Part shown: piece by piece, positions 2,365-50,541 of the stretch
Layout: each line of letters starts with the position of its first letter
How positions within the stretch are numbered: position 1 is the stretch's first letter
Source: Candidatus Omnitrophota bacterium
Lineage (GTDB): Bacteria; Omnitrophota; Gorgyraeia; Ghiorseimicrobiales; Ghiorseimicrobiaceae
Direction: 5' to 3'
NCBI GenBank assembly: GCA_030681595.1
Contig: JAUXSB010000014.1
Coordinates: 23,942-87,941, forward strand
DNA: 64,000 bases
The notes under the pieces: generated by a model
Told to the model about the DNA's origin: nothing
Database searches by the model: none
What the model saw: the letters and a program-made list of their open reading frames with translations, nothing else
Translations under genes and position numbers: made by a program

Positions 2365-4311
2365 TCAAGGGCTATCGATAAGCTTATCCCGCCATACCTT
2401 AACTTCGCTAAAAGCAGGGTTAATTACGAGTGCTTTGTCAAATTCTTCTTTTGCGCGGGTATAATCCCCCCTTTGCCAGTAAAATGCGCCTAAATTATAG
2501 TGAGCTATCGCGGAACTGTTATCCAGCTTAAGCGAATTCAAAAAATAATACTCTGCCTGGTCAAATTTTTGTAAAAGCGCGTAAACTATGCCTAAATTAA
2601 GGCTTGCCTCCGCACTCCCGGGCTCAAGATTAAGTACACACAAGTATTCCTTAAAAGCCAACTCATATAAACCAACCTTCTTATAGGCTGCGGCTAATTC
2701 ACTATGATATGCAGGATTTTTATTATCCAAAGCGGCTGCCGCGCGCAATGTTTCTATTGCTAAGCTTAAATCACCTGCCTCCTCATAAATAAGCCCCAAG
2801 AAATAATGATGATTAGGAATGGCGGGATTTATCCTTAAAGATTCCTTGTACGCCGCAACTGCCTCAGAAAATTGGCCGTTATTTGCATACATGCTGCCTA
2901 AATTTGCCCAGCCCCAGAAAGAGCTTGGGTGAGCCTCAAGAAAACTTTTAAGCTGGCTGAACGCGGCATCTTTACGGCCGCTTAAATATATAACCCTAAT
3001 CAGATTCAATAAAGATGTATCAAAATCCGGCCTTATATCTATGGCCTTTAAATAATATTTTTCCGCCTCTTTATAATTGCCTTCCTTTTCTTTTATCGCC
3101 GCCAGATTATTGTAAACATTGTAACTACCTTTAGAAAATTTTAGTATATGTTTGTAGAAACGCTCCGGGTTATGCCAGACAAAGTTATACTGTACGCTAA
3201 GGTAGGCGTAAAAAATAATTAAGCCCGCGGGTAAGAGGATGAATATTTTTTTCTTTGCGATTAGCCATGCGGCTATAATTGCCAAAACGAGAAACACCCC
3301 GATGGATGCAACGTAGCAAAAATGCTCAGCAAAATAGGCGTTTATCTGGAATATTCCGGAATGGGGCAAAAGAAACAAACCAAACCAAGCAAGGCCAAAA
3401 GAAAACAATTTAAATTTCCGGTATGCCTTTAGCGCCAAGAAAACAAGGCAGATTACGCCGACAATAGAAGCCCAGACGCTGGCATCCCATATTGATGAGA
3501 CAAGCCTAACCGCGTAAGACATGTGAAGGCCAAAAGGTAAAAGCAGGGTTTTGAGGTATAAAAAAATAGCTTTTATAAAAAAGAGAGCATTAATATAGCT
3601 ATCGCCTAATGAAGAAAAAATTGTTTTATTGGGAAGAATCACAACACGCAGGGCAACATACACTACGCTCAGTAAAAAGAATGGCAGGTAAACTATTTTG
3701 CGAGGTAACTTAGCCTTAGCCAAAGGTAAATTAAAACCATAGGTATACAACAGTAATAAGAAAGGGAAAATAAGAGCCAATTCCTTAGAAAGCAGCGCTA
3801 AACCAAAAGAAAGCAAAGAAAATACATAAGAACATTCAATGAATAATATTAAAGATAACAGCAAAAACAATGCTACCAGCATATCCGCCCTGCCGGAAAT
3901 ATAAGTTACCGCCTCTACATGTATGGGATGGACAACGAATAACAAAGCTGTAATCAACGAAATAACTGTATTAGCAGAAATAATCAGGATAAATTTATAT
4001 AAAAAACATGCTGTCAGGATATGCAGGATTATATTCGTAAGATGGTAACCTATGGGGCGCAGCTTCCAGACCTGATAATCCAGCATGTAGGAAAAGGCCT
4101 GGAATGGGCGGTAGAAATTCCTCGCTTCGCTTTTAGCATCAAATAAATCAGTGGAAAATACCCGCCCAAGATGGCGGAAGTCTTTTATCAAATAATTATT
4201 GCTGACCAGGCCGGTATCATCCCAAATAAAGGGGACAGACAAAGAATTAAAGTAACAAATAAAACCCAAAGCCGTTATTAAAATAACTGCTGTTAACTTT
4301 CGCTTATCCAT
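2365..4311 (-). CDS. TPR-repeat integral membrane protein (multi-TM N-terminal domain plus C-terminal TPR repeats; glycosyltransferase-like architecture)
   Basis: 648 aa; hydrophobic N-terminal two thirds, C-terminal region with repeated A-x-x-Y/L-G TPR-like units (AYHSELAAAYKKVGLYELAFKEY, AHYNLGAFYWQRGDYTRA). Confidence 0.7.
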   Translation of the reverse strand: MDKRKLTAVILITALGFICYFNSLSVPFIWDDTGLVSNNYLIKDFRHLGRVFSTDLFDAKSEARNFYRPFQAFSYMLDYQVWKLRPIGYHLTNIILHILTACFLYKFILIISANTVISLITALLFVVHPIHVEAVTYISGRADMLVALFLLLSLILFIECSYVFSLLSFGLALLSKELALIFPFLLLLYTYGFNLPLAKAKLPRKIVYLPFFLLSVVYVALRVVILPNKTIFSSLGDSYINALFFIKAIFLYLKTLLLPFGLHMSYAVRLVSSIWDASVWASIVGVICLVFLALKAYRKFKLFSFGLAWFGLFLLPHSGIFQINAYFAEHFCYVASIGVFLVLAIIAAWLIAKKKIFILLPAGLIIFYAYLSVQYNFVWHNPERFYKHILKFSKGSYNVYNNLAAIKEKEGNYKEAEKYYLKAIDIRPDFDTSLLNLIRVIYLSGRKDAAFSQLKSFLEAHPSSFWGWANLGSMYANNGQFSEAVAAYKESLRINPAIPNHHYFLGLIYEEAGDLSLAIETLRAAAALDNKNPAYHSELAAAYKKVGLYELAFKEYLCVLNLEPGSAEASLNLGIVYALLQKFDQAEYYFLNSLKLDNSSAIAHYNLGAFYWQRGDYTRAKEEFDKALVINPAFSEVKVWRDKLIDSP

Positions 4312-37464: not shown

Positions 37465-40747
<3,283 letters not shown>

Positions 40748-40849
40748 AATTTACAGAACGACAGTGAATGTAAATTGTATGTACGAATTTATCCCGCCGA
40801 ATGTGTAAAAATTGTAGTATAGAATTTTTACACATTTTATGAGGCGGGA

Positions 40850-41122
40850 TTAAAATCGAATCCCAAAATCCTTAAACTCTCCGGTGGCAGGTTGCCACTG
40901 AATATCTTTATCCTGAAGATATTCAGAAAAGCTTTCTTCTATTTTTTTAAGAAAATCTTTCAGGGTTCCTTCTTCCGCTTCAGCCGCTAATTCTACCCTG
41001 CCGTCGCGCAGGTTTTTCACCCAACCGCCGACTCCCATATCTCGCGCAATATCTTCGGCAGTGTAGCGAAACCCCACCCCCTGGACTCTCCCGCTATAAT
41101 AAACATGCGCTTGTTTTCTCAT
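40850..41122 (-). CDS. acyP: Acylphosphatase
   Basis: VYYSGRVQGVGFRY and GWVKNLRDGRVE motifs; upstream part of the ORF-track frame overlaps the tRNA and is not coding. Confidence 0.75.
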   Translation of the reverse strand: MRKQAHVYYSGRVQGVGFRYTAEDIARDMGVGGWVKNLRDGRVELAAEAEEGTLKDFLKKIEESFSEYLQDKDIQWQPATGEFKDFGIRF

Positions 41123-41127
41123 ATAAT

Positions 41128-41205
41128 TGGTCGGGAAGGGCGGACTTGAACCGCCGACCTCTTGCTCCCGAAGCAAGCGCTCTAGCCAAACTAAGCTACT
41201 TCCCG
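41128..41205 (-). tRNA. tRNA-Pro (anticodon CGG), CCA encoded
   Basis: Hand-folded reverse complement CGGGAAG-TA-GCTTAGTTTGGCTAGAGC-GC-TTGCT-TCGGGAG-CAAG..GGCGGTTCAAGTCCGCC-CTTCCCG-ACCA: 7-bp acceptor stem, GTTCAAGTC T-loop, anticodon loop TTCGGGA. Confidence 0.85.
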
Positions 41206-41314
41206 ATTAAATAATCTATTCTTTATGAAATACTACGCCATCCGCCACTAAAGATTCGGCGGATGCCCGCCAACGCATCAGTGGCGGGCAAACTGAGCTA
41301 CTCCCCGATTAAAA
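41187..41314. repeat. 26-bp direct repeat (caaact[a/g]agctact[t/c]cccgattaaa) duplicating the tRNA 5' end, flanking a GC-rich palindromic insert
   Basis: Copies at about 41187..41212 and 41289..41314; insert contains gccatccgcc...ggcggatgc and cccgccaac...tggcggg hairpins. Confidence 0.55.
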
Positions 41315-41357
41315 CAGTATACCAAAAAATTGCCATTCCGCCAAATTAAACTATGGA

Positions 41358-42668
41358 TTAAACTACGGATTCCTTGTTTGAATAAAGGCTGTCCAGCGGG
41401 CTTTTTGGGGCATTACTCATATTCCGCAGGACATGCGTATAAATCATCGTTGTTTCAACATTATTATGGCCCAAAAGCTCCTGCACTTCCCTGATGTTCA
41501 CCCCATTCATCAAAAGATGAGTAGCAAAACTGTGCCGCAAAGTATGAACAGAAACGCGTTTAACAATACCTGCCGCGTCTGCCGCTTTTTTAACTGCCTG
41601 CTGGATAGATTTATCGCTTATATGGTGGCGGCGCGCCTTGCCGCTTCTTGGGTCAACGGAAAGGTTAGGCGAAGGAAAAACATATTGCCAACGCCAATCT
41701 TTCGCGGCATTAGGATATTTGCGCGAAAGCGCGTCCGGTAAATATACCTCGCCATAGCCGGCTTTTAGGTCTTTTTCACGCAACTCTTTAACCCTCTCAA
41801 GATGAAGGCATAAATCATTTTTAATTTTATCAGGAAGCATAGTAGTCCTGTCTTTATCCTGTTTAGCCGCGCGGATAAATATTGTATTTGAGCTAAAATC
41901 AATATCCTGAACCCGCAAGCGCGCAAGCTCCATCAACCGAAGGCCTGAACCATAAAGTAACTGCATAATAAGCCGCCCTTTGCCTTCTATGTGCCTGAAT
42001 AATGCTTCAACTTCCCCTATTGTCAAAACCGTAGGCACTTTTGACCCGCGTTTTGCCCTGACCGCCTTATCCAAATCCTTGAGTTCAACCTCAAGCACCT
42101 CACGGAATAAAAATAAAAGCGCGTTAAACGCCTGATTCTGCGTGGAAGACGAAACCCGCCTTTGGATAGCCAAATAACTTAAGAAATTTCTCACGTCTTC
42201 TGAACCTAGCCTACCATCTTGGGCGCCCTTTTTCTTTACCTCTTCAATATAAGCGTAAAAACGCTTTGCCCAATCAGTGTATGAACGTTCTGTCTTGTAA
42301 GAATAATGCCTAAGCCGTATTGCCTCCCGCATTTTATTTATAATTTCTGAAATCGGCAGGGAAACTTTTTGAGGATTCAATAAATTTTCCTGGCGGGCAT
42401 CCGCGTTTTTTGACAAAAATTGCCCGGAATATAACTTTAGCGCTTCCTCTGCCTGTTTTATCTGCCAATCAGCAAACTCGCCCTGCGCCGCGAGACATAT
42501 CAAAAATTTCCTGATAAGCAAATCCCGGCTCTCTTCTCCGCTATTATTCGCAAAACCAAGGAATTTGCTTACCCAGCGCGCATAATATGAAACGCTCTTT
42601 TCAGGCACAAGTTTACGAGAAGTCAAAAACTCCTGAAATTCTGGCAAAACGTCACTAAGCATCTGCAA
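41358..42668 (-). CDS. intI: Integron integrase (IntI-type tyrosine recombinase); true start possibly near 42362
   Basis: C-terminal [12 protein letters not shown]...[16 protein letters not shown] catalytic box preceded by [40 protein letters not shown], which parallels the IntI-specific extra segment of IntI1 that XerC/D lack; divergent from downstream cassettes. Confidence 0.8.
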
Positions 42669-42843
42669 AACCCTCTCTTTACCAAAATTCCCTTCTTAAA
42701 CGAACTTCGTATTTTCCGTTATTATATGGTAATTGCGAAAATTAGCAAGATGATTTTGATTTTTTTATTGTTTACCCCTAGAAAATATGCTATATTTAAC
42801 TGAACAATAAAAAATTACGAACTTCGTCTATTAATTGTTAGGC
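42669..42843. promoter_or_regulatory. Candidate attI region with core site GTTAGGC (42837..42843) and two copies of the palindrome acgaacttcgt
   Basis: Canonical GTTRRRY core between intI start and first cassette ORF; the 11-bp palindrome occurs at about 42703 and 42817. Confidence 0.4.
42768..42796 (+). promoter_or_regulatory. Candidate cassette promoter (TTGTTT, 17-bp spacer, TATATT)
   Basis: Hexamer match by eye in AT-rich DNA; weak evidence. Confidence 0.2.
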
Positions 42844-42899
42844 GAAATAAAATTAATAGACATCAAAACTAGAAACCCATGTGAGTTTAAGTTAATCTT

Positions 42900-43505
42900 A
42901 TGTATAAAAAATTATTAATCATTTCTATTGGTATCTGTGCAATAGTTAGTAGTTTGTTTGGTTTAGTAAAATTAATGGAAAAAACCAGTGAAAGTTATTA
43001 TCTTAAAATTCCTTATTCATCATATTGTGCAGAATTTCAATCTGGCGGAATTAATTGTGATATGATAGGCGGCAATCTTATATTCGAAAGCGATTCGGAA
43101 AGACCCCTCATTTATTTTAAAAGAGAATTAACAAATAACTCTTTTGAAATTGATCTAAAAAATAAAATAATTCAGCAGATGCAGCATGCTTTTAATAACG
43201 ATTCGGCTCCAGCTTACTCCCCTTGCAACCCCGATCGAAAATATTGTGCTGCCTATAAAACAAAAGGTATTCTGAAAAAAGGAGGCGGAATCGGATTTTG
43301 GGTATCGCCTGATAAATTGTTTGGGTTAGAAATTTTCGAAATAAAAAGTATGCAAACAAAAAAGACATTCTTTCGAAAAATGAATCTGAAGTTCGGTGGT
43401 GCTTCCCCCACACTAAAATATGATACCTTCTGGAGTGAGGATGGTAAATATGTAGTTATCTTTGATAATTCAAATAATCTAATAATTCAAAGAATAAAAG
43501 AATAA
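42900..43505 (+). CDS. Integron cassette ORF: secreted or membrane-anchored protein of unknown function with four cysteines
   Basis: N-terminal hydrophobic signal or anchor (LLIISIGICAIVSSLFGLV); no recognisable family. Confidence 0.5.
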   Translation: MYKKLLIISIGICAIVSSLFGLVKLMEKTSESYYLKIPYSSYCAEFQSGGINCDMIGGNLIFESDSERPLIYFKRELTNNSFEIDLKNKIIQQMQHAFNNDSAPAYSPCNPDRKYCAAYKTKGILKKGGGIGFWVSPDKLFGLEIFEIKSMQTKKTFFRKMNLKFGGASPTLKYDTFWSEDGKYVVIFDNSNNLIIQRIKE

Positions 43506-43580
43506 ATGTTTCTTAATTTTAGAGAGTAGGAACAAACACCTATTATTCAAAGTCAAGATTTAAGATAAAATAATAAAGTC

Positions 43581-43655
43581 GTCTAACAACGCACTGCACC
43601 TGACCTTTCCCGCCGCTAAAGCGGCGCTCAAGGCAGGTGAGTTTGAATGTTATAT
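43581..43655 (+). other. attC-like recombination site 1
   Basis: Starts GTCTAAC (fits RYYYAAC), internal palindromes (cacctgacc...ggcaggtg; cgccgct aaa gcggcg), ends GTTATAT. Confidence 0.4.
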
Positions 43656-44159
43656 AACAAAATGGATAATTTAGACTATGATGCACAGCAGAGGAGAGAA
43701 GTATTTGCCATGTATGGTTTAGCCATGTATCATGCCCAATGTTTTGAAAAAAGCTTGGTTATATTGGTATCCGTTGCATTCAACAAAGAATATTTCAAGA
43801 GTAATTACGAAAAAAGAGAGGAACTTTTTTCTGATACTTTCAAAAAAACAGCCGGACAACTAGTAGAAAAACTTAAAGTGATGGTAAAAGTCCCGAATAC
43901 CCTGGAAAATGACTTATCCAAAGCGGTAAAAAAAAGAAATTGGTTGGCACATGATTATTTTTGGGGAAATTCTTATGATATTTTGACAACAGCCGGAAGA
44001 GAGAGAAAACTAAATGAACTGCATGAAATTTCAGAATATTTTTCAAAGATGGATGAAAGAATGACAAAAATATATCAACGTGTATTCGATAAAATTGGAT
44101 TGACTGAAGATAAAGTTATGGCATATTTAGAGAAAATGGTAGATAAACACAAAATATAA
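43647..44159 (+). CDS. Integron cassette ORF: possible HEPN-motif protein (R-x4-H); true start may be the second ATG at 43662
   Basis: RNWLAH fits the HEPN Rx4-6H motif; otherwise unrecognised; the first five codons overlap the attC right end. Confidence 0.45.
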   Translation: MLYNKMDNLDYDAQQRREVFAMYGLAMYHAQCFEKSLVILVSVAFNKEYFKSNYEKREELFSDTFKKTAGQLVEKLKVMVKVPNTLENDLSKAVKKRNWLAHDYFWGNSYDILTTAGRERKLNELHEISEYFSKMDERMTKIYQRVFDKIGLTEDKVMAYLEKMVDKHKI

Positions 44160-44215
44160 CAAATCAATCCAGCGGAATTTGCCTCTGGCAAATCCGCTGA
44201 TTTCTGGTGTTATGC
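44154..44215 (+). other. attC-like recombination site 2
   Basis: ataacaaatcaatccagcggaatttgcc / ggcaaatccgctgatttctggtgttatgc imperfect inverted repeat, ATAAC...GTTAT cores. Confidence 0.45.
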
Positions 44216-44222
44216 TAAAAAA

Positions 44223-45146
44223 ATGGAAGAAAAGCAAATGTTGTTATCATGGCTCATAATCTCTATTCTGATTACATCCTATTCTACCATTCGGAATGTC
44301 GAATTCGTGGAAGCGAATACTGAATCCATGAGAAGTGATAATTCAGACATTTTCTACGAAAAAAGAGGAAACGGGAAACAAAAGATGCTTTTAATTCACG
44401 GATACGGAGCAACGAGAATGAGCTTTTATGATATAGCCCCGTTTCTAGAAAATCAGTATGAACTGTATTTAATCGACTTAATTGGTTTCGGAGATTCGCG
44501 GGCTCCATTTGGTTGGGAATACAAACCACAAAATCAAGCAGAGGCGGTATACCGATTCATAAAGAAAAATGAACTAACTGACATTACAGTTGTGGGTCAC
44601 TCATATGGCGGAATGGTGGTACTGTTACTCCTTCAAAAGATCGAAAAAGCGAAGGAATATTTTTTAATCAGGAATGCAGTTTTGATCGACCCTGCAGCTT
44701 ATCCGCAGAGGTTCCCTTTTTTTGTTCAAATTCCCAAAATACCTATTGTTAATACGATCTTTCTTTCGCTAATACCTGCAAGAAAACAAGCGCAATACAC
44801 TTTAAAGCGTCTGTTTTATGATGACAAAAAGGTCACAGATGAAAGAATCGAAAGATATGCATCCTATTACAGAAAAGGAACTCATAGAAAGGCGATAATT
44901 GAGTCTGCCAAGAATATGATTCCTAAAAATATTGATCAATTAGAAGAGGATATCAAAACAATTTCGATCCGAACGCTTATAATATGGGGTAGTAAAGATC
45001 CTGTCATACCAAAGTCAAACATAGATAGACTCCATAAAGAGCTGAAAAATTCAAATCTTATGGTGATTGAAGACGCAGGCCATATACCCCATGAAGAAAA
45101 GCCAGAGGAAACATATAATGCATTTATTGAGTTTATTCGAGATTAG
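44223..45146 (+). CDS. Integron cassette ORF: alpha/beta-fold hydrolase with N-terminal TM anchor
   Basis: HGYG oxyanion region, GHSYGG nucleophile elbow, downstream Asp and His (DAGHIPH). Confidence 0.75.
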   Translation: MEEKQMLLSWLIISILITSYSTIRNVEFVEANTESMRSDNSDIFYEKRGNGKQKMLLIHGYGATRMSFYDIAPFLENQYELYLIDLIGFGDSRAPFGWEYKPQNQAEAVYRFIKKNELTDITVVGHSYGGMVVLLLLQKIEKAKEYFLIRNAVLIDPAAYPQRFPFFVQIPKIPIVNTIFLSLIPARKQAQYTLKRLFYDDKKVTDERIERYASYYRKGTHRKAIIESAKNMIPKNIDQLEEDIKTISIRTLIIWGSKDPVIPKSNIDRLHKELKNSNLMVIEDAGHIPHEEKPEETYNAFIEFIRD

Positions 45147-45157
45147 GTTTCATTAGT

Positions 45158-45997
45158 ATGAAATTCATTCTTGAGGTTCTTAATATATTCTGGTCCATTT
45201 GCTTAGCGATTATTGCAATAGTTGTATCGTTTCTTATCCCTAAGTCTAAAAAAAGAAAAGAAGTAGGAGTAGGACTCTCAATTTTTTCTTTTACGATTAA
45301 TTTTAGAAAAGATACCTATATAAGGGGGCTTCTGGTTCTTCTAGGAATTTCCTTTCTAGGATTTACATTTGTACGTGATTACTCTTCTTTTTTTCCAAAA
45401 CGGGTGTCATTTGAGATTTATTATGACTCAAATGGGTTGAAACAGGCCATAGAAAGTATAAGGCCGTTATTGGAAGATGGCATGAAGATTTCTCCAGATT
45501 GGGAAAACAAAAGGAGGGCATATTTCCAAGAACTTGATAAAATTATTAAGTCAAAAATACCGCAGTATGAACTATTCTTTTCATATGATCATGTTGAAGA
45601 TTATTTAGTGAGCAAAGGTAAAGCAGAACATGTTGTTGAGTTGTTTAGATTTTGGCAGCAATATAAGATCACCAAGGTCAATGGCTTGGTTCAACATCGG
45701 CTTCACCCGCCTGATATGAATCCGATTGAACTCGAAACCAGGTATAATCTTTTAGATAGACCGAAAAACTTAGTTTTACCCACTATAAGAGATTTCTTCA
45801 GGGGCAGAAAACTTGTTGCACCAACAATGGCACAATCTCTCATAATTCACACAGATAAGGTTTATGAGGCCGAAATTGTAGGACTTACGGAGGTCAGGTT
45901 TTTTCCGTATAATACTTTGGAAAAGACGATATTTTGCTTTAAATCGGAAGCGGGATTAGTTCCTTTTTCGTATACATTTTATAAAGAAGAAGAATAA
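45158..45997 (+). CDS. Integron cassette ORF: 2-TM membrane protein of unknown function (same cassette as the hydrolase)
   Basis: Two N-terminal hydrophobic helices; only 11 bp after the hydrolase stop with no intervening attC. Confidence 0.5.
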   Translation: MKFILEVLNIFWSICLAIIAIVVSFLIPKSKKRKEVGVGLSIFSFTINFRKDTYIRGLLVLLGISFLGFTFVRDYSSFFPKRVSFEIYYDSNGLKQAIESIRPLLEDGMKISPDWENKRRAYFQELDKIIKSKIPQYELFFSYDHVEDYLVSKGKAEHVVELFRFWQQYKITKVNGLVQHRLHPPDMNPIELETRYNLLDRPKNLVLPTIRDFFRGRKLVAPTMAQSLIIHTDKVYEAEIVGLTEVRFFPYNTLEKTIFCFKSEAGLVPFSYTFYKEEE

Positions 45998-46002
45998 AAA
46001 AA

Positions 46003-46059
46003 GCATAACAACTCGCTGCAGCCGACCGCCTACGCGGCGGCTGAGCTCAATCGTTATAG
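46003..46059 (+). other. attC-like recombination site 3
   Basis: gcataacaactcgctgcagccgaccgcc / ggcggctgagctcaatcgttatagg imperfect inverted repeat with ATAAC...GTTAT cores. Confidence 0.45.
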
Positions 46060-46150
46060 GAAAAAATAAAAATGATCAGGCCAAAAAAACACAAGATTTG
46101 GAGTGAGAACTTGAATCTATAATATAACCGGTAAAAAAGAGAGGAAAACT

Positions 46151-46243
46151 ATGAGCAAAAGTCATGATGCTAAAAAAGATGTAAAAAAGAAAGCAGCAAA
46201 AACGCTAAAAGAGAAACGGCTTGATAAAAAAGCGAAAAAATAG
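46151..46243 (+). CDS. Small Lys-rich ORF (30 aa, MSKSHDAKKDVKKKAAKTLKEKRLDKKAKK), possible mini-cassette
   Basis: Good Shine-Dalgarno (agaggaaaact) 5 nt upstream of ATG; followed by a GTTAGGC core at 46270..46276. Below the ORF-track size cutoff. Confidence 0.25.
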   Translation: MSKSHDAKKDVKKKAAKTLKEKRLDKKAKK

Positions 46244-46385
46244 ACAAATAAAAATAATCGAAATTTGGTGTTAGGCCATGAATCTGAAATATAGGATATT
46301 AATAAGGTCAGCCCCTAAATTTTCCTGCCTTTTTCCCAGAGCGAAGCGGCGGAAAAAAATAGGTGAAGGTATACCTTGCCCCTGC

Positions 46386-49300
46386 CTAAACCAAATACAC
46401 GTCGATTTTCTTGATTAGGCCAGAGCGGATTTTTTCTGCGTAGGGGTGGGTGATAATACCGGACTTTATGGTAATAAGTTCTCCGCTATCATCTTCAAAG
46501 ATATACATTCCGACAGAAACACCTTTAGGGCCGAATGTATTTCGCAGCTTAGGATTATGATAGACAACTAAAGTTTTATTTAAGAACTTAAAAGAGTAAT
46601 TTTTTTTCTTGGTGAATAGTTTTTTGTGCAGTATCGGCTTAAATTCTAAGGTTAACTTCCCTTCTTTATCTAATTTAAAAAGGTTAAAGCCGATGTTCAT
46701 TGCCAGCCAGATGCTGATAAACTCAGCGGTCGAGCCGGAAAGACGCGCAACAAAGCCGTTACCGTGAAGACTATCGTCGCAAAATGCACTGCTGGCCAAA
46801 AATGAAGAATTCTCTAAAATACTCCTACCGTATTTTTTGGCATCCAAAAACGGAATAAAGCAATTAAAGAAATCATTATAAAACTCTTCGTATAAACCGC
46901 ATCTTAATAATTCAAGCAGGAATTTATACTCCATGTGCAGCCATACCGATTCGTTTTCCAGCCAACCCGGAGTGAACACTCTGCATCTGCCGATTTCAAT
47001 GGGCGCTTCTTTAAGCGGCGCGCAAACCTTATACATTTTAAGCTTCCTGTCGTAGAGCGAAGACGAACGTATTGCCTTGTATAAACTGGCGGCCTTAGCA
47101 GTGTCTTTTTCTAACCTTAAAGCGTGCACCTGCGCTTCTAAGAAAAACGGCAAAGGCTCCTGCTTAAACTTACGCACTCTTACAGAGCCGGAGTATAACT
47201 CATAATCAACTACTTCGTTTATAAAATAAGCCCGGTAAATGCCTGTCTTTTTATCAACGGCGCGGGATAGCCCAAAAGATATCTTGCGCTCTGCCGCATT
47301 AAGAATAGAAAATAATTCCGCCAGCTTAATCCCGCTTTCTTTCCCGCTAAACCCGAATCTGCTGTTTGCCCTGTAGCCTTCCTTTAAGGCATACGCCTTA
47401 TCCCAAAAGATAAAATCCCGCTCTTTACTGCCAGACGCGAAATATTCCTCAAGCAGTTTGCCTAAATTTTTCAGGAAATTATTTATTTCCAAAGGTAAAA
47501 TCATATCCTCATATTGAAAAGCGCGCGAATTTTTTAGCGCATCTTTAATAAAAATAATAAGGCGCTTCAGCTCAAAAGTTTCATTAGTAGATGAACCGAA
47601 AAGCGCGGGCAGGCCGTTTAAAGAATCAAACCAATTTGGTTTATTTGCCTCCATTTCAACGCCTATCCCTTGCGCGTCCAGCGAGGCAAGCTTATTTACA
47701 AAAAGACAGAGCAGCTTTGTCAGCAAGCTTACATAAATGATATCTCCCTTGCCGAAATCCGCCCTTACCCTATGCGCATCATGCGCTCTTGAACGGATTA
47801 ACTCCTCCTTCTCGGGGTCTTTTTTAAGCGAATGATGCTGGGATACCTTATTGGCGCCAGTTAAAACATACTTTACATCACGCGGCTGGACTATTTCAGC
47901 ATTATCAAAAAAGCTAAATATTTTTTTATCAACAAATATCTCTTTTAGTTTTTCAGGATATAAGGCGAGGTAGCTTTCTATTAAGTCTAAGTTATACGCC
48001 CAATGGTCGCTCCAGAACCCTTCAGAATGTTCCGCATCCTCTATTCTCGCGGATAAACATAGCGCCTCCTTAAGAAACTCCGGCATATCAACATCCAGCC
48101 CGATGTTGTTTTCTTCGATAAGCATAGCAAGCGAGCCCGGAGTAAATGGTTTGTTAAAAAATTGGCCCAAATTTTCCCTGTCTTTCGTGTCAACAATATG
48201 GTTTAAAAGTTCAGGTCTATTCTTTTCTTCCAAGGAAAAACTTAACCCCTTAATTACTAATGGGTTAAAACCATCGGTTTGAATGAGATTTAAGAAATCC
48301 ACCAGATTCGACTCCGCCACATCCGAATTAAACCAGTTATCCGAACGGCGGTTCTGATTCATATCACGGTAATTACCGTTACCTTGAGAAAAATACGTCG
48401 GGCTAAGCAAAAAATTATTGTAATCGCGCTCTAAATCTCCGTGCTTACGAGAATAGAGATAAAATACGGATTTTTTACCTGCACGCGAAAACGAGACGGG
48501 ATATCCGCCCCTTAAAACATTATCTAAAAATGTCTGTTTTGCGTATAAGTTAAACTCACCAAAAGCGCTTTCCGTGTGAATATTATCCTCAATTTCTCGG
48601 ATTAAGTTTGCGTTTTCCTGCTGCTTTTCCTGAATAAAACTATTGTTTAGAATCCTCTCGATCTGAGGAATTAACTTTTCCTTACCGGAAGCATATCCAA
48701 CGATAGAAAAAATTGACTTAGGCTCATCCGGCTTAATAGATGAGCTGAAATAAGAAAAAGCGCACGGGGTCCTGCTTTCTTTAATCTGTTTTGATAAGGC
48801 GGGGTTAAATTTTTCCTTGTTGATGAAATTACGGGGATAAGAAAAATCGCCTTGGCCGAACAGGCATACCGGGTCAACTATAGCATCAAGCAGCTTATTC
48901 TTATTGCCCTCGCGGCAGAAAGGAAGGTAAAAATTCCCCCCCTCTATATAAAAAGTCTCCGGCCTGTCTGCAGGGTCAATATAAAGGTTGTAAAAAGGAA
49001 TCTTATTATTCAAGAAATCAACGCGCATCCATGCTTCAATAGTGCGCGACATGTCTTTTAAGAAAAAGTTAGCTGTGCCATAAGGCGTAATTTTAGGCAG
49101 CCCGTCAACCGCTTCTATTTCAAGGATTTTTTTTCCGGTATTTGTAATTTTTAATTCTCTGATTATCGCGGCTATGGGTTCGCCGGAAAGCGTAAAATAA
49201 CGCACATCAATTTTCAGGCCAAGAAGGGGATTTATTTCCTCTAAAGCAAGCTCGTAAGATTTAATCCTCATTAGGCGGCGTAAGTCAAAAGAAAGATTAT

Positions 49301-49613
49301 CCAGGCTGTCCTGAAAAGGCTCATAATAGGCAACCCTTGAGCCGTTTTTAACTTTCAGAAATGTCCTGAAGCCTTCAGATGCGGCAGACTGCCATGCCTG
49401 ATTCGCGGGAAGGAATTCCAGAATAGAATGATTTTTATCCTTGGTGCCGAAGCTGATTACGAGTTGCCCGCGGTTGACATAAAAAACCCACATCGGTATC
49501 CCGAAGAAACCGGCAATACCCGGGAAAAAGCTGGCAAACGGCTTCGCGGAATTATAATTTTCAATTACAAACTCACCGGTTTTATTATCAAGGTAATATT
49601 TTGGTTTTAACAT
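46386..49613 (-). CDS. Large (1075 aa) protein of unknown function, possibly carbohydrate-active
   Basis: Long uninterrupted ORF; Trp/Asp-rich segments (FWSDHWAYNLD, GNGNYRDMNQNRR) and an adjacent sugar kinase give only contextual hints. Confidence 0.55.
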   Translation of the reverse strand: MLKPKYYLDNKTGEFVIENYNSAKPFASFFPGIAGFFGIPMWVFYVNRGQLVISFGTKDKNHSILEFLPANQAWQSAASEGFRTFLKVKNGSRVAYYEPFQDSLDNLSFDLRRLMRIKSYELALEEINPLLGLKIDVRYFTLSGEPIAAIIRELKITNTGKKILEIEAVDGLPKITPYGTANFFLKDMSRTIEAWMRVDFLNNKIPFYNLYIDPADRPETFYIEGGNFYLPFCREGNKNKLLDAIVDPVCLFGQGDFSYPRNFINKEKFNPALSKQIKESRTPCAFSYFSSSIKPDEPKSIFSIVGYASGKEKLIPQIERILNNSFIQEKQQENANLIREIEDNIHTESAFGEFNLYAKQTFLDNVLRGGYPVSFSRAGKKSVFYLYSRKHGDLERDYNNFLLSPTYFSQGNGNYRDMNQNRRSDNWFNSDVAESNLVDFLNLIQTDGFNPLVIKGLSFSLEEKNRPELLNHIVDTKDRENLGQFFNKPFTPGSLAMLIEENNIGLDVDMPEFLKEALCLSARIEDAEHSEGFWSDHWAYNLDLIESYLALYPEKLKEIFVDKKIFSFFDNAEIVQPRDVKYVLTGANKVSQHHSLKKDPEKEELIRSRAHDAHRVRADFGKGDIIYVSLLTKLLCLFVNKLASLDAQGIGVEMEANKPNWFDSLNGLPALFGSSTNETFELKRLIIFIKDALKNSRAFQYEDMILPLEINNFLKNLGKLLEEYFASGSKERDFIFWDKAYALKEGYRANSRFGFSGKESGIKLAELFSILNAAERKISFGLSRAVDKKTGIYRAYFINEVVDYELYSGSVRVRKFKQEPLPFFLEAQVHALRLEKDTAKAASLYKAIRSSSLYDRKLKMYKVCAPLKEAPIEIGRCRVFTPGWLENESVWLHMEYKFLLELLRCGLYEEFYNDFFNCFIPFLDAKKYGRSILENSSFLASSAFCDDSLHGNGFVARLSGSTAEFISIWLAMNIGFNLFKLDKEGKLTLEFKPILHKKLFTKKKNYSFKFLNKTLVVYHNPKLRNTFGPKGVSVGMYIFEDDSGELITIKSGIITHPYAEKIRSGLIKKIDVYLV

Positions 49614-49641
49614 ATTTATCCTGTAACTACTGATTAATTAC

Positions 49642-50541
49642 CTAAAAGGCCAGAATATTTCTAAATTTATTCAGACGGGAATGAATATCTTTTTTTGTAA
49701 GCCGCGCTATCCTCTCGATGCCGAAACCTTCCACATTGAAAGAAGATAAGATTGTCCCATAAATAATCGCCTTTTTTAATGTTTTTCCGTTAATTTTTCC
49801 TGCCTGCGCCAGATACCCCATAAACCCGCCGGCAAAAGTATCGCCTGCCCCCGTAGGGTCAACTACGTGTTCAACCGGATATGCCGGATAAGAAAAGATA
49901 AATTTATCACAGTAAAATAAAACACCGTGCTCGCCTTTTTTTATGACAATAAAACGGGGGCCTAACCGACGTAATGCCCTTGCCGCCTTTATTAAGTTAT
50001 GCTCGCCGGACAAATCGCGCGCCTCCTGGTCATTGGCGACATAGATATCCACATCTTTTAATAACCTAACCAAGTCCTGGCGTTTATTATGTATCCAGTA
50101 ATTCATACTATCTAAACCGACAAGTTTAGGACGATGCATGCTTTTTAAAAGATGCATCTGTATCTCGGGGTCAACGTTGGCTAAAAAAACATTTTCAATT
50201 TTTTTCTGATGTTCGGGAATGGTGGGTTTAAAAATAGATAAAACTCCTAATTCAGTACTTAAGGTAAGGGCGGTATTTAAATCGCCTTTATATTCGCCTG
50301 ACCAACGGAATGTTTTACCGTTACCTTTAATTAATGAGGTAAGGATAATGCCTTTTTTATGCAGAAAATTGATATGTTTCCCCGGAAAGTCTTCTCCGAC
50401 GATCGCCACAAGGTTCACATCGGTAAAAAACCGCGCGGCAAGCGAAAAATGCGCGGCTGAGCCGCCTAATAAATTATGCCGCCGGCCTTCGGGCGTCTTT
50501 ACTGTATCGAGGGCAACCGTACCCAGAACGATTATGCTCAT
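49642..50541 (-). CDS. PfkB-family carbohydrate kinase
   Basis: C-terminal DPTGAGDTFAGGF motif and N-terminal GG substrate motif. Confidence 0.8.
   Translation of the reverse strand: MSIIVLGTVALDTVKTPEGRRHNLLGGSAAHFSLAARFFTDVNLVAIVGEDFPGKHINFLHKKGIILTSLIKGNGKTFRWSGEYKGDLNTALTLSTELGVLSIFKPTIPEHQKKIENVFLANVDPEIQMHLLKSMHRPKLVGLDSMNYWIHNKRQDLVRLLKDVDIYVANDQEARDLSGEHNLIKAARALRRLGPRFIVIKKGEHGVLFYCDKFIFSYPAYPVEHVVDPTGAGDTFAGGFMGYLAQAGKINGKTLKKAIIYGTILSSFNVEGFGIERIARLTKKDIHSRLNKFRNILAF

Follow-up and report, generated by a model that had tools for sequence, protein, structure and literature searches.

[quoted passage not shown] The window analysed here, a stretch of 64,000 nucleotides from a Candidatus Omnitrophota bacterium, contains an integron cassette with two, which raises the question of whether the two genes belong together and, if so, what they might do. 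A reading of the sequence alone had described the first product as a membrane-anchored Ser-Asp-His hydrolase with a GHSYGG nucleophile elbow and the second as an uncharacterised protein with two transmembrane (TM) segments. It had noted that the ORFs lie 11 nt apart with no attC between them, had set this layout against the one-ORF norm, and had proposed that the two are probably a functional pair. We followed these claims with profile searches, attC modelling, structure prediction and an inspection of related loci.

A two-gene cassette in a small chromosomal integron

The array that contains the cassette is a small chromosomal integron (Table 1). Judged by its match to TIGR02249 (E 6.4e-128; 426.5 bits, where the cut-off is 265), the product of the gene that runs divergently from the cassette array is a true integron integrase. 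It has a TTG start as listed and an N-terminal extension of about 105 aa. The attI core is almost complementary to the R'' sequence of the first attC. The bottom strands of the three attC sites fold into imperfect DNA hairpins that are far more stable than those of shuffled sequences, with z-scores of -5.2 for cassette 1 (-18.6 kcal/mol), -5.7 for cassette 2 and -3.7 for the two-gene cassette. We built a covariance model from four attC sites, three from the window and one from a second locus (L001, see below), and ran it with all filters off. The alignment of the four sites retained 17 pairs, seven of which show compensatory changes. Scanning positions 40000-50000 recovered the three sites at 62-79 bits (61.6, 65.6 and 78.9 bits in the order of the array, from a model that includes each of these sites), and the model found no further attC either in this region or in the whole window. 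A search of 41000-47000 against Rfam returned nothing but one tRNA.

The attC of cassette 2 forms the 5' limit of the two-gene cassette, whose own attC is the last of the array, so that this cassette closes it. The cassette opens with TTATGC (44210-44215), exactly complementary to GCATAA (46003-46008) in the R'' of its own attC, and the same relation between the 5' end and the cassette's own R'' holds for cassette 2 and for the cassette at L001. Within 44219-45999, the covariance scan with filters off gave no attC above 8.5 bits and only E-values above 6, from a model of four local sites only, which a very divergent relic could escape. Folding of the ORF junction (45120-45200) was no better than that of shuffles (z -0.8 to -1.0). 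Given the complementarity of TTATGC and GCATAA and the lack of an internal attC, 44210-46053 is therefore one cassette with two ORFs. Its GC content is 36%, against 41% for the window, and the cassettes of this array span 32-36%.

These results bear out most of what the sequence-only reading had said about the layout. The ORF listing and a direct reading of the sequence agree on the position of the two ORFs and on the 11 nt between them, and the covariance scan and the junction folding are both negative for an attC in that interval. Two genes do share the cassette; the layout is not unusual in itself, because two-ORF integron cassettes are already on record, some of them encoding toxin-antitoxin systems (PMC8618304). 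The two genes probably form a self-contained, translationally coupled operon that was taken up in one piece.

Table 1. Features of the integron and of the two-gene cassette (positions in the window; residue numbers refer to the proteins)
Feature	Positions	Strand	Remarks
IntI, integron integrase, 436 aa	41358-42668	-	TIGR02249; Pfam Phage_integrase, Phage_int_SAM_4
attI core GTTAGGC	42837-42843	+	read off the sequence; cassette 1 from 42838
attC of cassette 1	43578-43658	+	R'' GTCTAAC 43581-43587; R' GTTATAT 43649-43655
attC of cassette 2	44151-44218	+	R'' ATATAAC 44154-44160; R' GTTATGC 44209-44215
Two-gene cassette, 1844 bp	44210-46053	+	limits: G/TT crossovers in R', 44209 and 46053
Alpha/beta serine hydrolase, 307 aa	44223-45146	+	Pfam Abhydrolase_1; signal-peptide-like core, residues 7-17
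Spacer between the ORFs, 11 nt	45147-45157	+	from hydrolase TAG stop to partner ATG; without attC
Partner protein, 279 aa	45158-45997	+	TM1 ~7-28, TM2 ~54-72
Layout of the partner protein			beta-hairpin 33-50 in loop; RDYSxFFP 73-80; helical insert 91-133; barrel ~82-88 and 150-277
attC of the two-gene cassette	46000-46062	+	R'' GCATAAC 46003-46009; R' GTTATAG 46053-46059

The hydrolase and its partner protein

The first gene encodes a new member of a known superfamily. The protein matches Abhydrolase_1 (E 2.6e-26; 93.2 bits against a cut-off of 25.8), and Abhydrolase_6 and Hydrolase_4 of Pfam also score above their cut-offs, while it attains no equivalog cut-off of NCBIfam. An alternative start at Met6 (44238) gives a protein of 302 aa, as in the public record P0003. 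The assignment as a Ser-Asp-His hydrolase is confirmed by the Abhydrolase_1 match and by the triad Ser127/Asp259/His287, which is kept in all eight paired homologues; the nucleophile elbow GHSYGG occupies residues 125-130. Among PDB entries the top match is 6I8W, the structure of PlaF, at E 6.1e-24; the alignment covers residues 18-306, and PlaF is thus the nearest relative with a solved structure.

The description of the hydrolase as membrane-anchored needs more care. Its N-terminal hydrophobic core, LLSWLIISILI, has a 19-residue mean hydropathy of 1.54, below the usual TM threshold. Because the core is only 11-13 residues long, we read the N terminus as signal-peptide-like and not as a firm TM anchor. 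Membrane anchoring of the enzyme is thus no more than plausible. In six of the eight paired hydrolases a Cys follows straight after the hydrophobic stretch, a position at which the window hydrolase has none, and a lipobox-like motif occurs in 52 of the 76 relatives with a long N terminus (among 120 database relatives). From these N-terminal features we conclude that the hydrolase is predicted to be exported and that most of its clade would be lipid-anchored; the enzyme of the window would either be released into the periplasm or be retained by an uncleaved signal.

The second product has no match in Pfam, NCBIfam or PADLOC. None of 119 members of its family matched Pfam (0/119), and the profile of these 119 members found nothing among all PDB sequences, with no Cap15 at E <=10. 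With the libraries and the PDB sequence search recognising nothing, the protein was rightly called uncharacterised. Its family is nevertheless large: when 1.84 billion cluster representatives (50% identity) were searched exhaustively with a profile, at least 262 clusters passed E <=1e-3 and 211 passed E <=1e-10, almost all of them 270-290 aa long and aligned end to end. Named sources include Thermoanaerobaculia and Zixibacteria genome bins. A public entry identical to the 279-aa partner is annotated to a Candidatus Omnitrophota genome bin. A word-indexed protein search, even with a profile, returned only four homologues. A seven-sequence alignment of the partner yielded no loci in genome and viral contig collections, a degenerate DNA motif (DY[ST]x[FL]FP-8-[YF]DxxG) gave seven genome and 13 metagenome matches that were all attributable to chance by the HMM, and tblastn against plasmids gave no partner match.

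To call the partner a 2-TM protein describes it correctly in part. The hydrophobic segments at ~7-28 and 54-72 are strongly hydrophobic, with Kyte-Doolittle 19-residue means of 2.66 and 1.91; besides these there is a predicted eight-stranded beta-barrel domain. AlphaFold2, run with the 119-sequence alignment, returned a pLDDT of 95.3 and a pTM of 0.89, with all five models at 94 or above. In the model, a helix (2-26), a beta-hairpin (33-50) and a second helix (51-72) are followed by the conserved motif RDYSxFFP at the end of helix 2, by a strand and two helices over 82-133, and by seven more long antiparallel strands (150-277), giving an eight-stranded barrel of calycin/Cap15-like appearance. 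Foldseek found no match at E <=0.001. The fold matches of the partner are generic for small meander barrels, and outer-membrane barrels score equally. The homology and structure searches of the two proteins thus led to PlaF for the hydrolase and to an unnamed family with a predicted barrel for the partner. Conserved in at least 90% of the 119 sequences are D74, D90, Y169 (invariant), Q226, T244 and Y272; these polar residues would fit a specific binding site more than a purely structural core. No fusion of hydrolase and partner was found among the long family members P0206, P0212 and P0138.

The side of the membrane on which the barrel would lie is signalled in conflicting ways. The loop between the two helices of the window partner is very rich in Lys and Arg (eight residues), which suggests a cytoplasmic loop and a periplasmic barrel. 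Across the family this positive-inside signal is weak: the mean number of Lys and Arg among the 119 sequences is 2.8 in the two 10-residue ends of the loop, versus 1.9 in the N-terminal tail plus a stretch of 10 residues directly behind TM2. Taken in full, the loop is richer in Lys and Arg than these outer segments in 74 of the 119. The signal also conflicts with two rare members, P0138 and P0206, which have long, apparently cytoplasmic N-terminal extensions ahead of the hairpin; such extensions would place the barrel on the cytoplasmic side, opposite to the hydrolase. The extension of P0138 (381 aa) matches OmpR/KdpE-type DNA-binding domains, weakly but consistently. The barrel of Cap15 is cytoplasmic (PMC10419184).

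Conservation of the pair in other genomes

We inspected nine loci of the partner family, out of at least 262 clusters; six of them were reached through similarity to the hydrolase, which biases the set to one clade. At eight of the nine a hydrolase gene of this enzyme clade lies directly upstream of the partner gene (the window, L001, L002, L003, L008, L009, L013 and L014). The hydrolases P0004, P0007, P0006, P0011, P0012 and P0072, the nearest relatives that have an N-terminal signal, with 61-37% identity to that of the window, are each followed immediately 3' by an ORF of 278-283 aa, and these six ORFs score between E 1e-53 and 1e-103 against the HMM of the partner. P0160, a distant partner that was picked regardless of any hydrolase, again has an alpha/beta hydrolase upstream. 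The gaps between the two genes at the eight loci are -4, -4, -4, -1, 8, 9, 10 and 11 nt, so that four of the pairs overlap, three in the ATGA manner (4 nt) and one by 1 nt. Among the pairs, identity goes down to 31-38% between hydrolases and to 25-29% between partners, and the pairwise identities of the two proteins correlate with r = 0.92 over seven complete pairs, which are not independent of one another.

The surroundings of the pair vary. L001 is a second integron cassette with both genes; it starts at G/TTAGGC, and its attC (1919-1982) scores 73.5 bits with a model that it was used to build, so that the score is not independent. At L013, on a Zixibacteria chromosome, the pair lies between genes for an Hsp70-like protein and a PEP-utilising enzyme. 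The flanks of L014 differ again, the pairs are found in at least two named phyla, and no third conserved gene is present across the inspected pair loci.

The partner accompanies hydrolases of the exported form. Relatives of the enzyme that lack the N-terminal signal (L004, L005/L006 and L007; three inspected) are all without a partner. Those at L004 and L005/L006 adjoin radical-SAM, Memo and AMMECR1 genes, and the one at L007 is 59% identical to the hydrolase of the window. Lipoprotein relatives from Bacteroidota have no partner either, which indicates that the enzyme clade can work without one. The one unpaired locus of the nine, with no hydrolase neighbour, is that of P0138, an atypical member of the family.

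The proposal that the two genes are probably a functional pair has thus gained ground: they occur together at seven further loci with gaps of -4 to +11 nt and correlated divergence, they are adjacent at eight of the nine loci, and no attC separates them in the window. By these genomic comparisons, functional pairing of the hydrolase and its partner is well supported.

Possible functions and comparison with known systems

We tentatively favour an envelope-lipid hydrolase that works with a dedicated, ligand-binding accessory or regulatory membrane protein, the two being encoded in one operon that was captured as a unit. The first product would be a serine enzyme exported through Sec that belongs to the PlaF-like branch of alpha/beta hydrolases; its targets are probably the acyl esters in envelope lipids, on which it would act with phospholipase A or esterase activity. 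The second would be its dedicated accessory protein, with a helical hairpin in the cytoplasmic membrane and a calycin-like barrel. The barrel may bind a small, probably hydrophobic ligand, which could be the lipid substrate, a fatty-acid or lysolipid product, or a regulator, and the ligand-bound barrel might then supply the hydrolase, relieve it or regulate it at the surface of the membrane. The analysis shows how the cassette is built, a pairing retained across genomes, a complete triad, an export signal in the hydrolase and the fold predicted for the partner; we infer the substrate class, ligand binding by the barrel, contact between the two proteins and the side of the membrane that the barrel faces. 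It is an open question in the field how membrane phospholipases of this type are regulated and what takes care of their products (PMC9132575); PlaF itself is reported to be regulated by its fatty-acid products (PMC10976570).

An unlikely reading, and one that still deserves to be weighed, is a toxin-immunity pair, in which the hydrolase would be a membrane-damaging phospholipase and the partner an inhibitor or immunity protein that guards the membrane of the producer and could help to stabilise the cassette. The toxin-antitoxin systems found in some two-ORF cassettes (PMC8618304) and the degradation of its own cell's membrane phospholipids by PlaF, the nearest solved relative (PMC9132575), would agree with this, as would the tight coupling with the enzyme gene first and the partner gene second, the correlated divergence, and the occurrence of the partner only alongside exported versions of the enzyme. 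However, the pair is also found in ordinary chromosomal contexts without a mobile-element signature (L013 and L014), partnerless lipoprotein homologues exist in Bacteroidota, and the pair matches no known defence or toxin-antitoxin models. Membership of a known toxin-antitoxin family is a separate matter and is ruled out, since neither product has similarity to one in Pfam, NCBIfam or PADLOC. Typical toxin-antitoxin cassettes are far smaller than 1844 bp.

Lif is a membrane-anchored, lipase-specific foldase that is encoded downstream of Pseudomonas and Burkholderia lipases; it is all-helical, with a single TM segment. That the partner is a steric chaperone or membrane-docking helper of this kind, aiding the folding, the lipidation or sorting, or the positioning of the hydrolase, appears distinctly unlikely to us. 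The operon logic is the same, a lipase gene followed by the gene of a membrane-anchored protein, and the confinement of the partner to exported hydrolases would suit such a role, but a predicted beta-barrel with a TM hairpin is unlike the all-helical Lif, no Pfam match to Lipase_chap or to any other family was found, and relatives of the enzyme fold without a partner. Actual membership of the Lif family is ruled out by the lack of a Pfam match in all 119 family members and by the predicted barrel fold.

[quoted passage not shown] It is therefore conceivable, at low odds, that the barrel is a cytoplasmic sensor of small molecules whose TM hairpin oligomerises and perturbs the membrane, and that it forms with the hydrolase a compact stress or anti-phage module on integron cassettes. 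The N-terminal extensions of P0138 and P0206, which imply a cytoplasmic barrel as in Cap15 (PMC10419184), would speak for this. In contrast to Cap15, the operon includes no CD-NTase or other synthase of a nucleotide signal, the only conserved neighbour is an alpha/beta hydrolase, and PADLOC gives no match. The broader proposal, that the whole partner family consists of unrecognised Cap15-like effectors or sensors which, with the hydrolase, make up an integron-mobilised envelope-stress or anti-phage module, seems to us quite improbable as well. Membership of the Cap15 family proper is ruled out, with no sequence match at E <=10 and no synthase in the operon.

We give hardly any credence to the genes being neighbours by shared inheritance only, without a functional link: the set of nine loci, six of them reached from hydrolase similarity and biased to one clade, would allow it, but the adjacency persists at 25-38% identity, amid varied flanks, in at least two named phyla and with overlapping stop and start codons, and the independently picked P0160 also has its upstream hydrolase.

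The locus matters in several ways. It defines a protein family that the databases do not name, comprising at least 262 clusters (50% identity); with a structure predicted at high confidence and a gene neighbour that is conserved, this family offers experiments a concrete target. Should the barrel bind lipid substrates or products of a PlaF-like enzyme, or control the enzyme, the two proteins would act as a two-component unit by which membrane lipids of bacteria are remodelled or attacked. The locus also illustrates that integrons of uncultivated lineages, here Candidatus Omnitrophota, take up whole operons, which is relevant to the mining of cassette libraries.

Compared with known systems, the cassette itself has its closest counterpart in the two-ORF, often toxin-antitoxin, cassettes, which likewise have two ORFs per attC within an integron array (PMC8618304); the products differ, as scans with Pfam, NCBIfam and PADLOC link neither of them to known toxins or antitoxins. 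For the enzyme, the comparison is with the Pseudomonas aeruginosa phospholipase A1 PlaF (PA2949), which an N-terminal helix fastens to the cytoplasmic membrane, which projects its catalytic domain into the periplasm and which acts on endogenous membrane glycerophospholipids (PMC9132575). Both enzymes have an alpha/beta fold, a Ser-Asp-His triad, an N-terminal hydrophobic segment and, as predicted for the window hydrolase, an extracytoplasmic catalytic domain. Their relationship is distant, and they differ at the N terminus, where PlaF has a full TM helix and the window hydrolase a short signal-peptide-like core, its relatives being mostly lipoproteins. The PlaF type is further marked by regulation of its phospholipase A1 activity through fatty-acid-dependent dimerisation. 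The paper on PlaF describes no dedicated partner and does not mention an operon (PMC9132575).

For the partner, the likeness to calycin-type barrels (lipocalins, YceI and streptavidin, as well as the periplasmic ToxS/VtrC) is one of fold only, at 3-11% identity. Proteins with such barrels are soluble, lipid-anchored or carry a single TM segment, and we know of none that is paired with an alpha/beta hydrolase. Neither the partner family nor its pairing with PlaF-like hydrolases is named by the libraries searched, and we found no description of them in a literature search that was not aimed specifically at the pair. As an arrangement of genes, the closest parallel from general knowledge is the LipA-Lif operon, in which the gene for a secreted alpha/beta hydrolase is likewise followed by that for a dedicated accessory protein anchored in the inner membrane. 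The pair described here would belong to a known type, an exported lipase with a dedicated membrane accessory protein.

Integrase and the first two cassettes

The integron-integrase model covers only residues 108-427 of the integrase as listed. In the N-terminal extension of about 105 residues ahead of this part, the SAM-like domain PF13495 is matched a second time, giving two stretches, which suggests either that the N-terminal domain is duplicated or that the start was miscalled. About 150 bp beyond the 3' end of the integrase gene is the tRNA-Pro(CGG) gene. The products of cassettes 1 and 2 had no significant match in Pfam, NCBIfam or PADLOC. The listed ATG of the cassette 2 ORF runs into the R' core of the attC before it, so the true start may be Met6 at 43662.

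Features of the integron region and of related loci on other contigs
Feature	Position	Strand	Description
tRNA-Pro(CGG) gene	41128-41205	-	Rfam 66.3 bits; ARAGORN
Integron integrase	41358-42668	-	436 aa as listed, TTG start
Cassette 1 ORF	42900-43505	+	201-aa protein, hydrophobic N-terminus
Cassette 2 ORF	43647-44159	+	170-aa protein
Region after last attC	46054-46385		Lysine-rich ORF, second GTTAGGC and an ATATAAC
1075-aa protein	46386-49613	-	Partial match to GH149 beta-1,3-glucan phosphorylase model
Signal-less hydrolase neighbourhoods	L004 5001-8927; L005 5001-8475		AmmeMemoRadiSam-type cluster
P0138	L035 707-1852		N-terminal OmpR/KdpE-like winged-helix region

Sequence beyond the last attC

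The region 3' of the last attC may represent either a degraded cassette or the point where the array stops. It contains a lysine-rich ORF of 30 aa (46151-46243), an ATATAAC heptamer at 46122 and, at 46270-46276, the attI core GTTAGGC once more, without a mismatch. We scanned the region with the attC model, a covariance model built from four attC sites (three in the window and one on a related contig), and found no site. The adjoining 1075-aa protein contains no Pfam domain and scored 117 bits against the GH149 model, under the cut-off of 1150, over a partial match.

On L002, a contig carrying the hydrolase-partner pair, a mini-palindrome (GTTAGGG-GGCAAG-CCTAAC, 3630-3660) lies downstream of the two genes. 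The two heptamers that make it up resemble the integron cores but stand in inverted order, and no attC stem separates them. The palindrome gave no match to the attC model.

Relatives of the hydrolase and its partner

The hydrolase relatives on L004 and L005, two unrelated contigs, lack the signal and show 46-48% identity. In both cases, radical-SAM, small-ORF and Memo/AMMECR1 genes follow directly downstream, a different conserved neighbourhood that belongs to this cytoplasmic branch of the hydrolase.

The family of the 279-aa membrane partner seems to be confined to poorly sampled lineages. Logan, ENA and JGI/IMG assemblies are the main sources of the members found to date, and a few are from NCBI genome bins. 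A motif search of 185,579 species-representative genomes and the JGI metagenome set found no true member, the motif being present in 56 of 154 family representatives.

Three rare members carry extra domains, which are relevant to the topology of the partner and possibly bear on a signalling role. P0206 has about 220 residues ahead of TM1, the first helix of the hairpin. Its extension is 220 aa or longer, and the end of the contig probably truncates the N-terminus. In P0212, the last strands are replaced by a C-terminal extension of about 300 aa. The PDB matches of the N-terminal region of P0138 (E 0.014-1.4) all belong to the OmpR/KdpE-like family.
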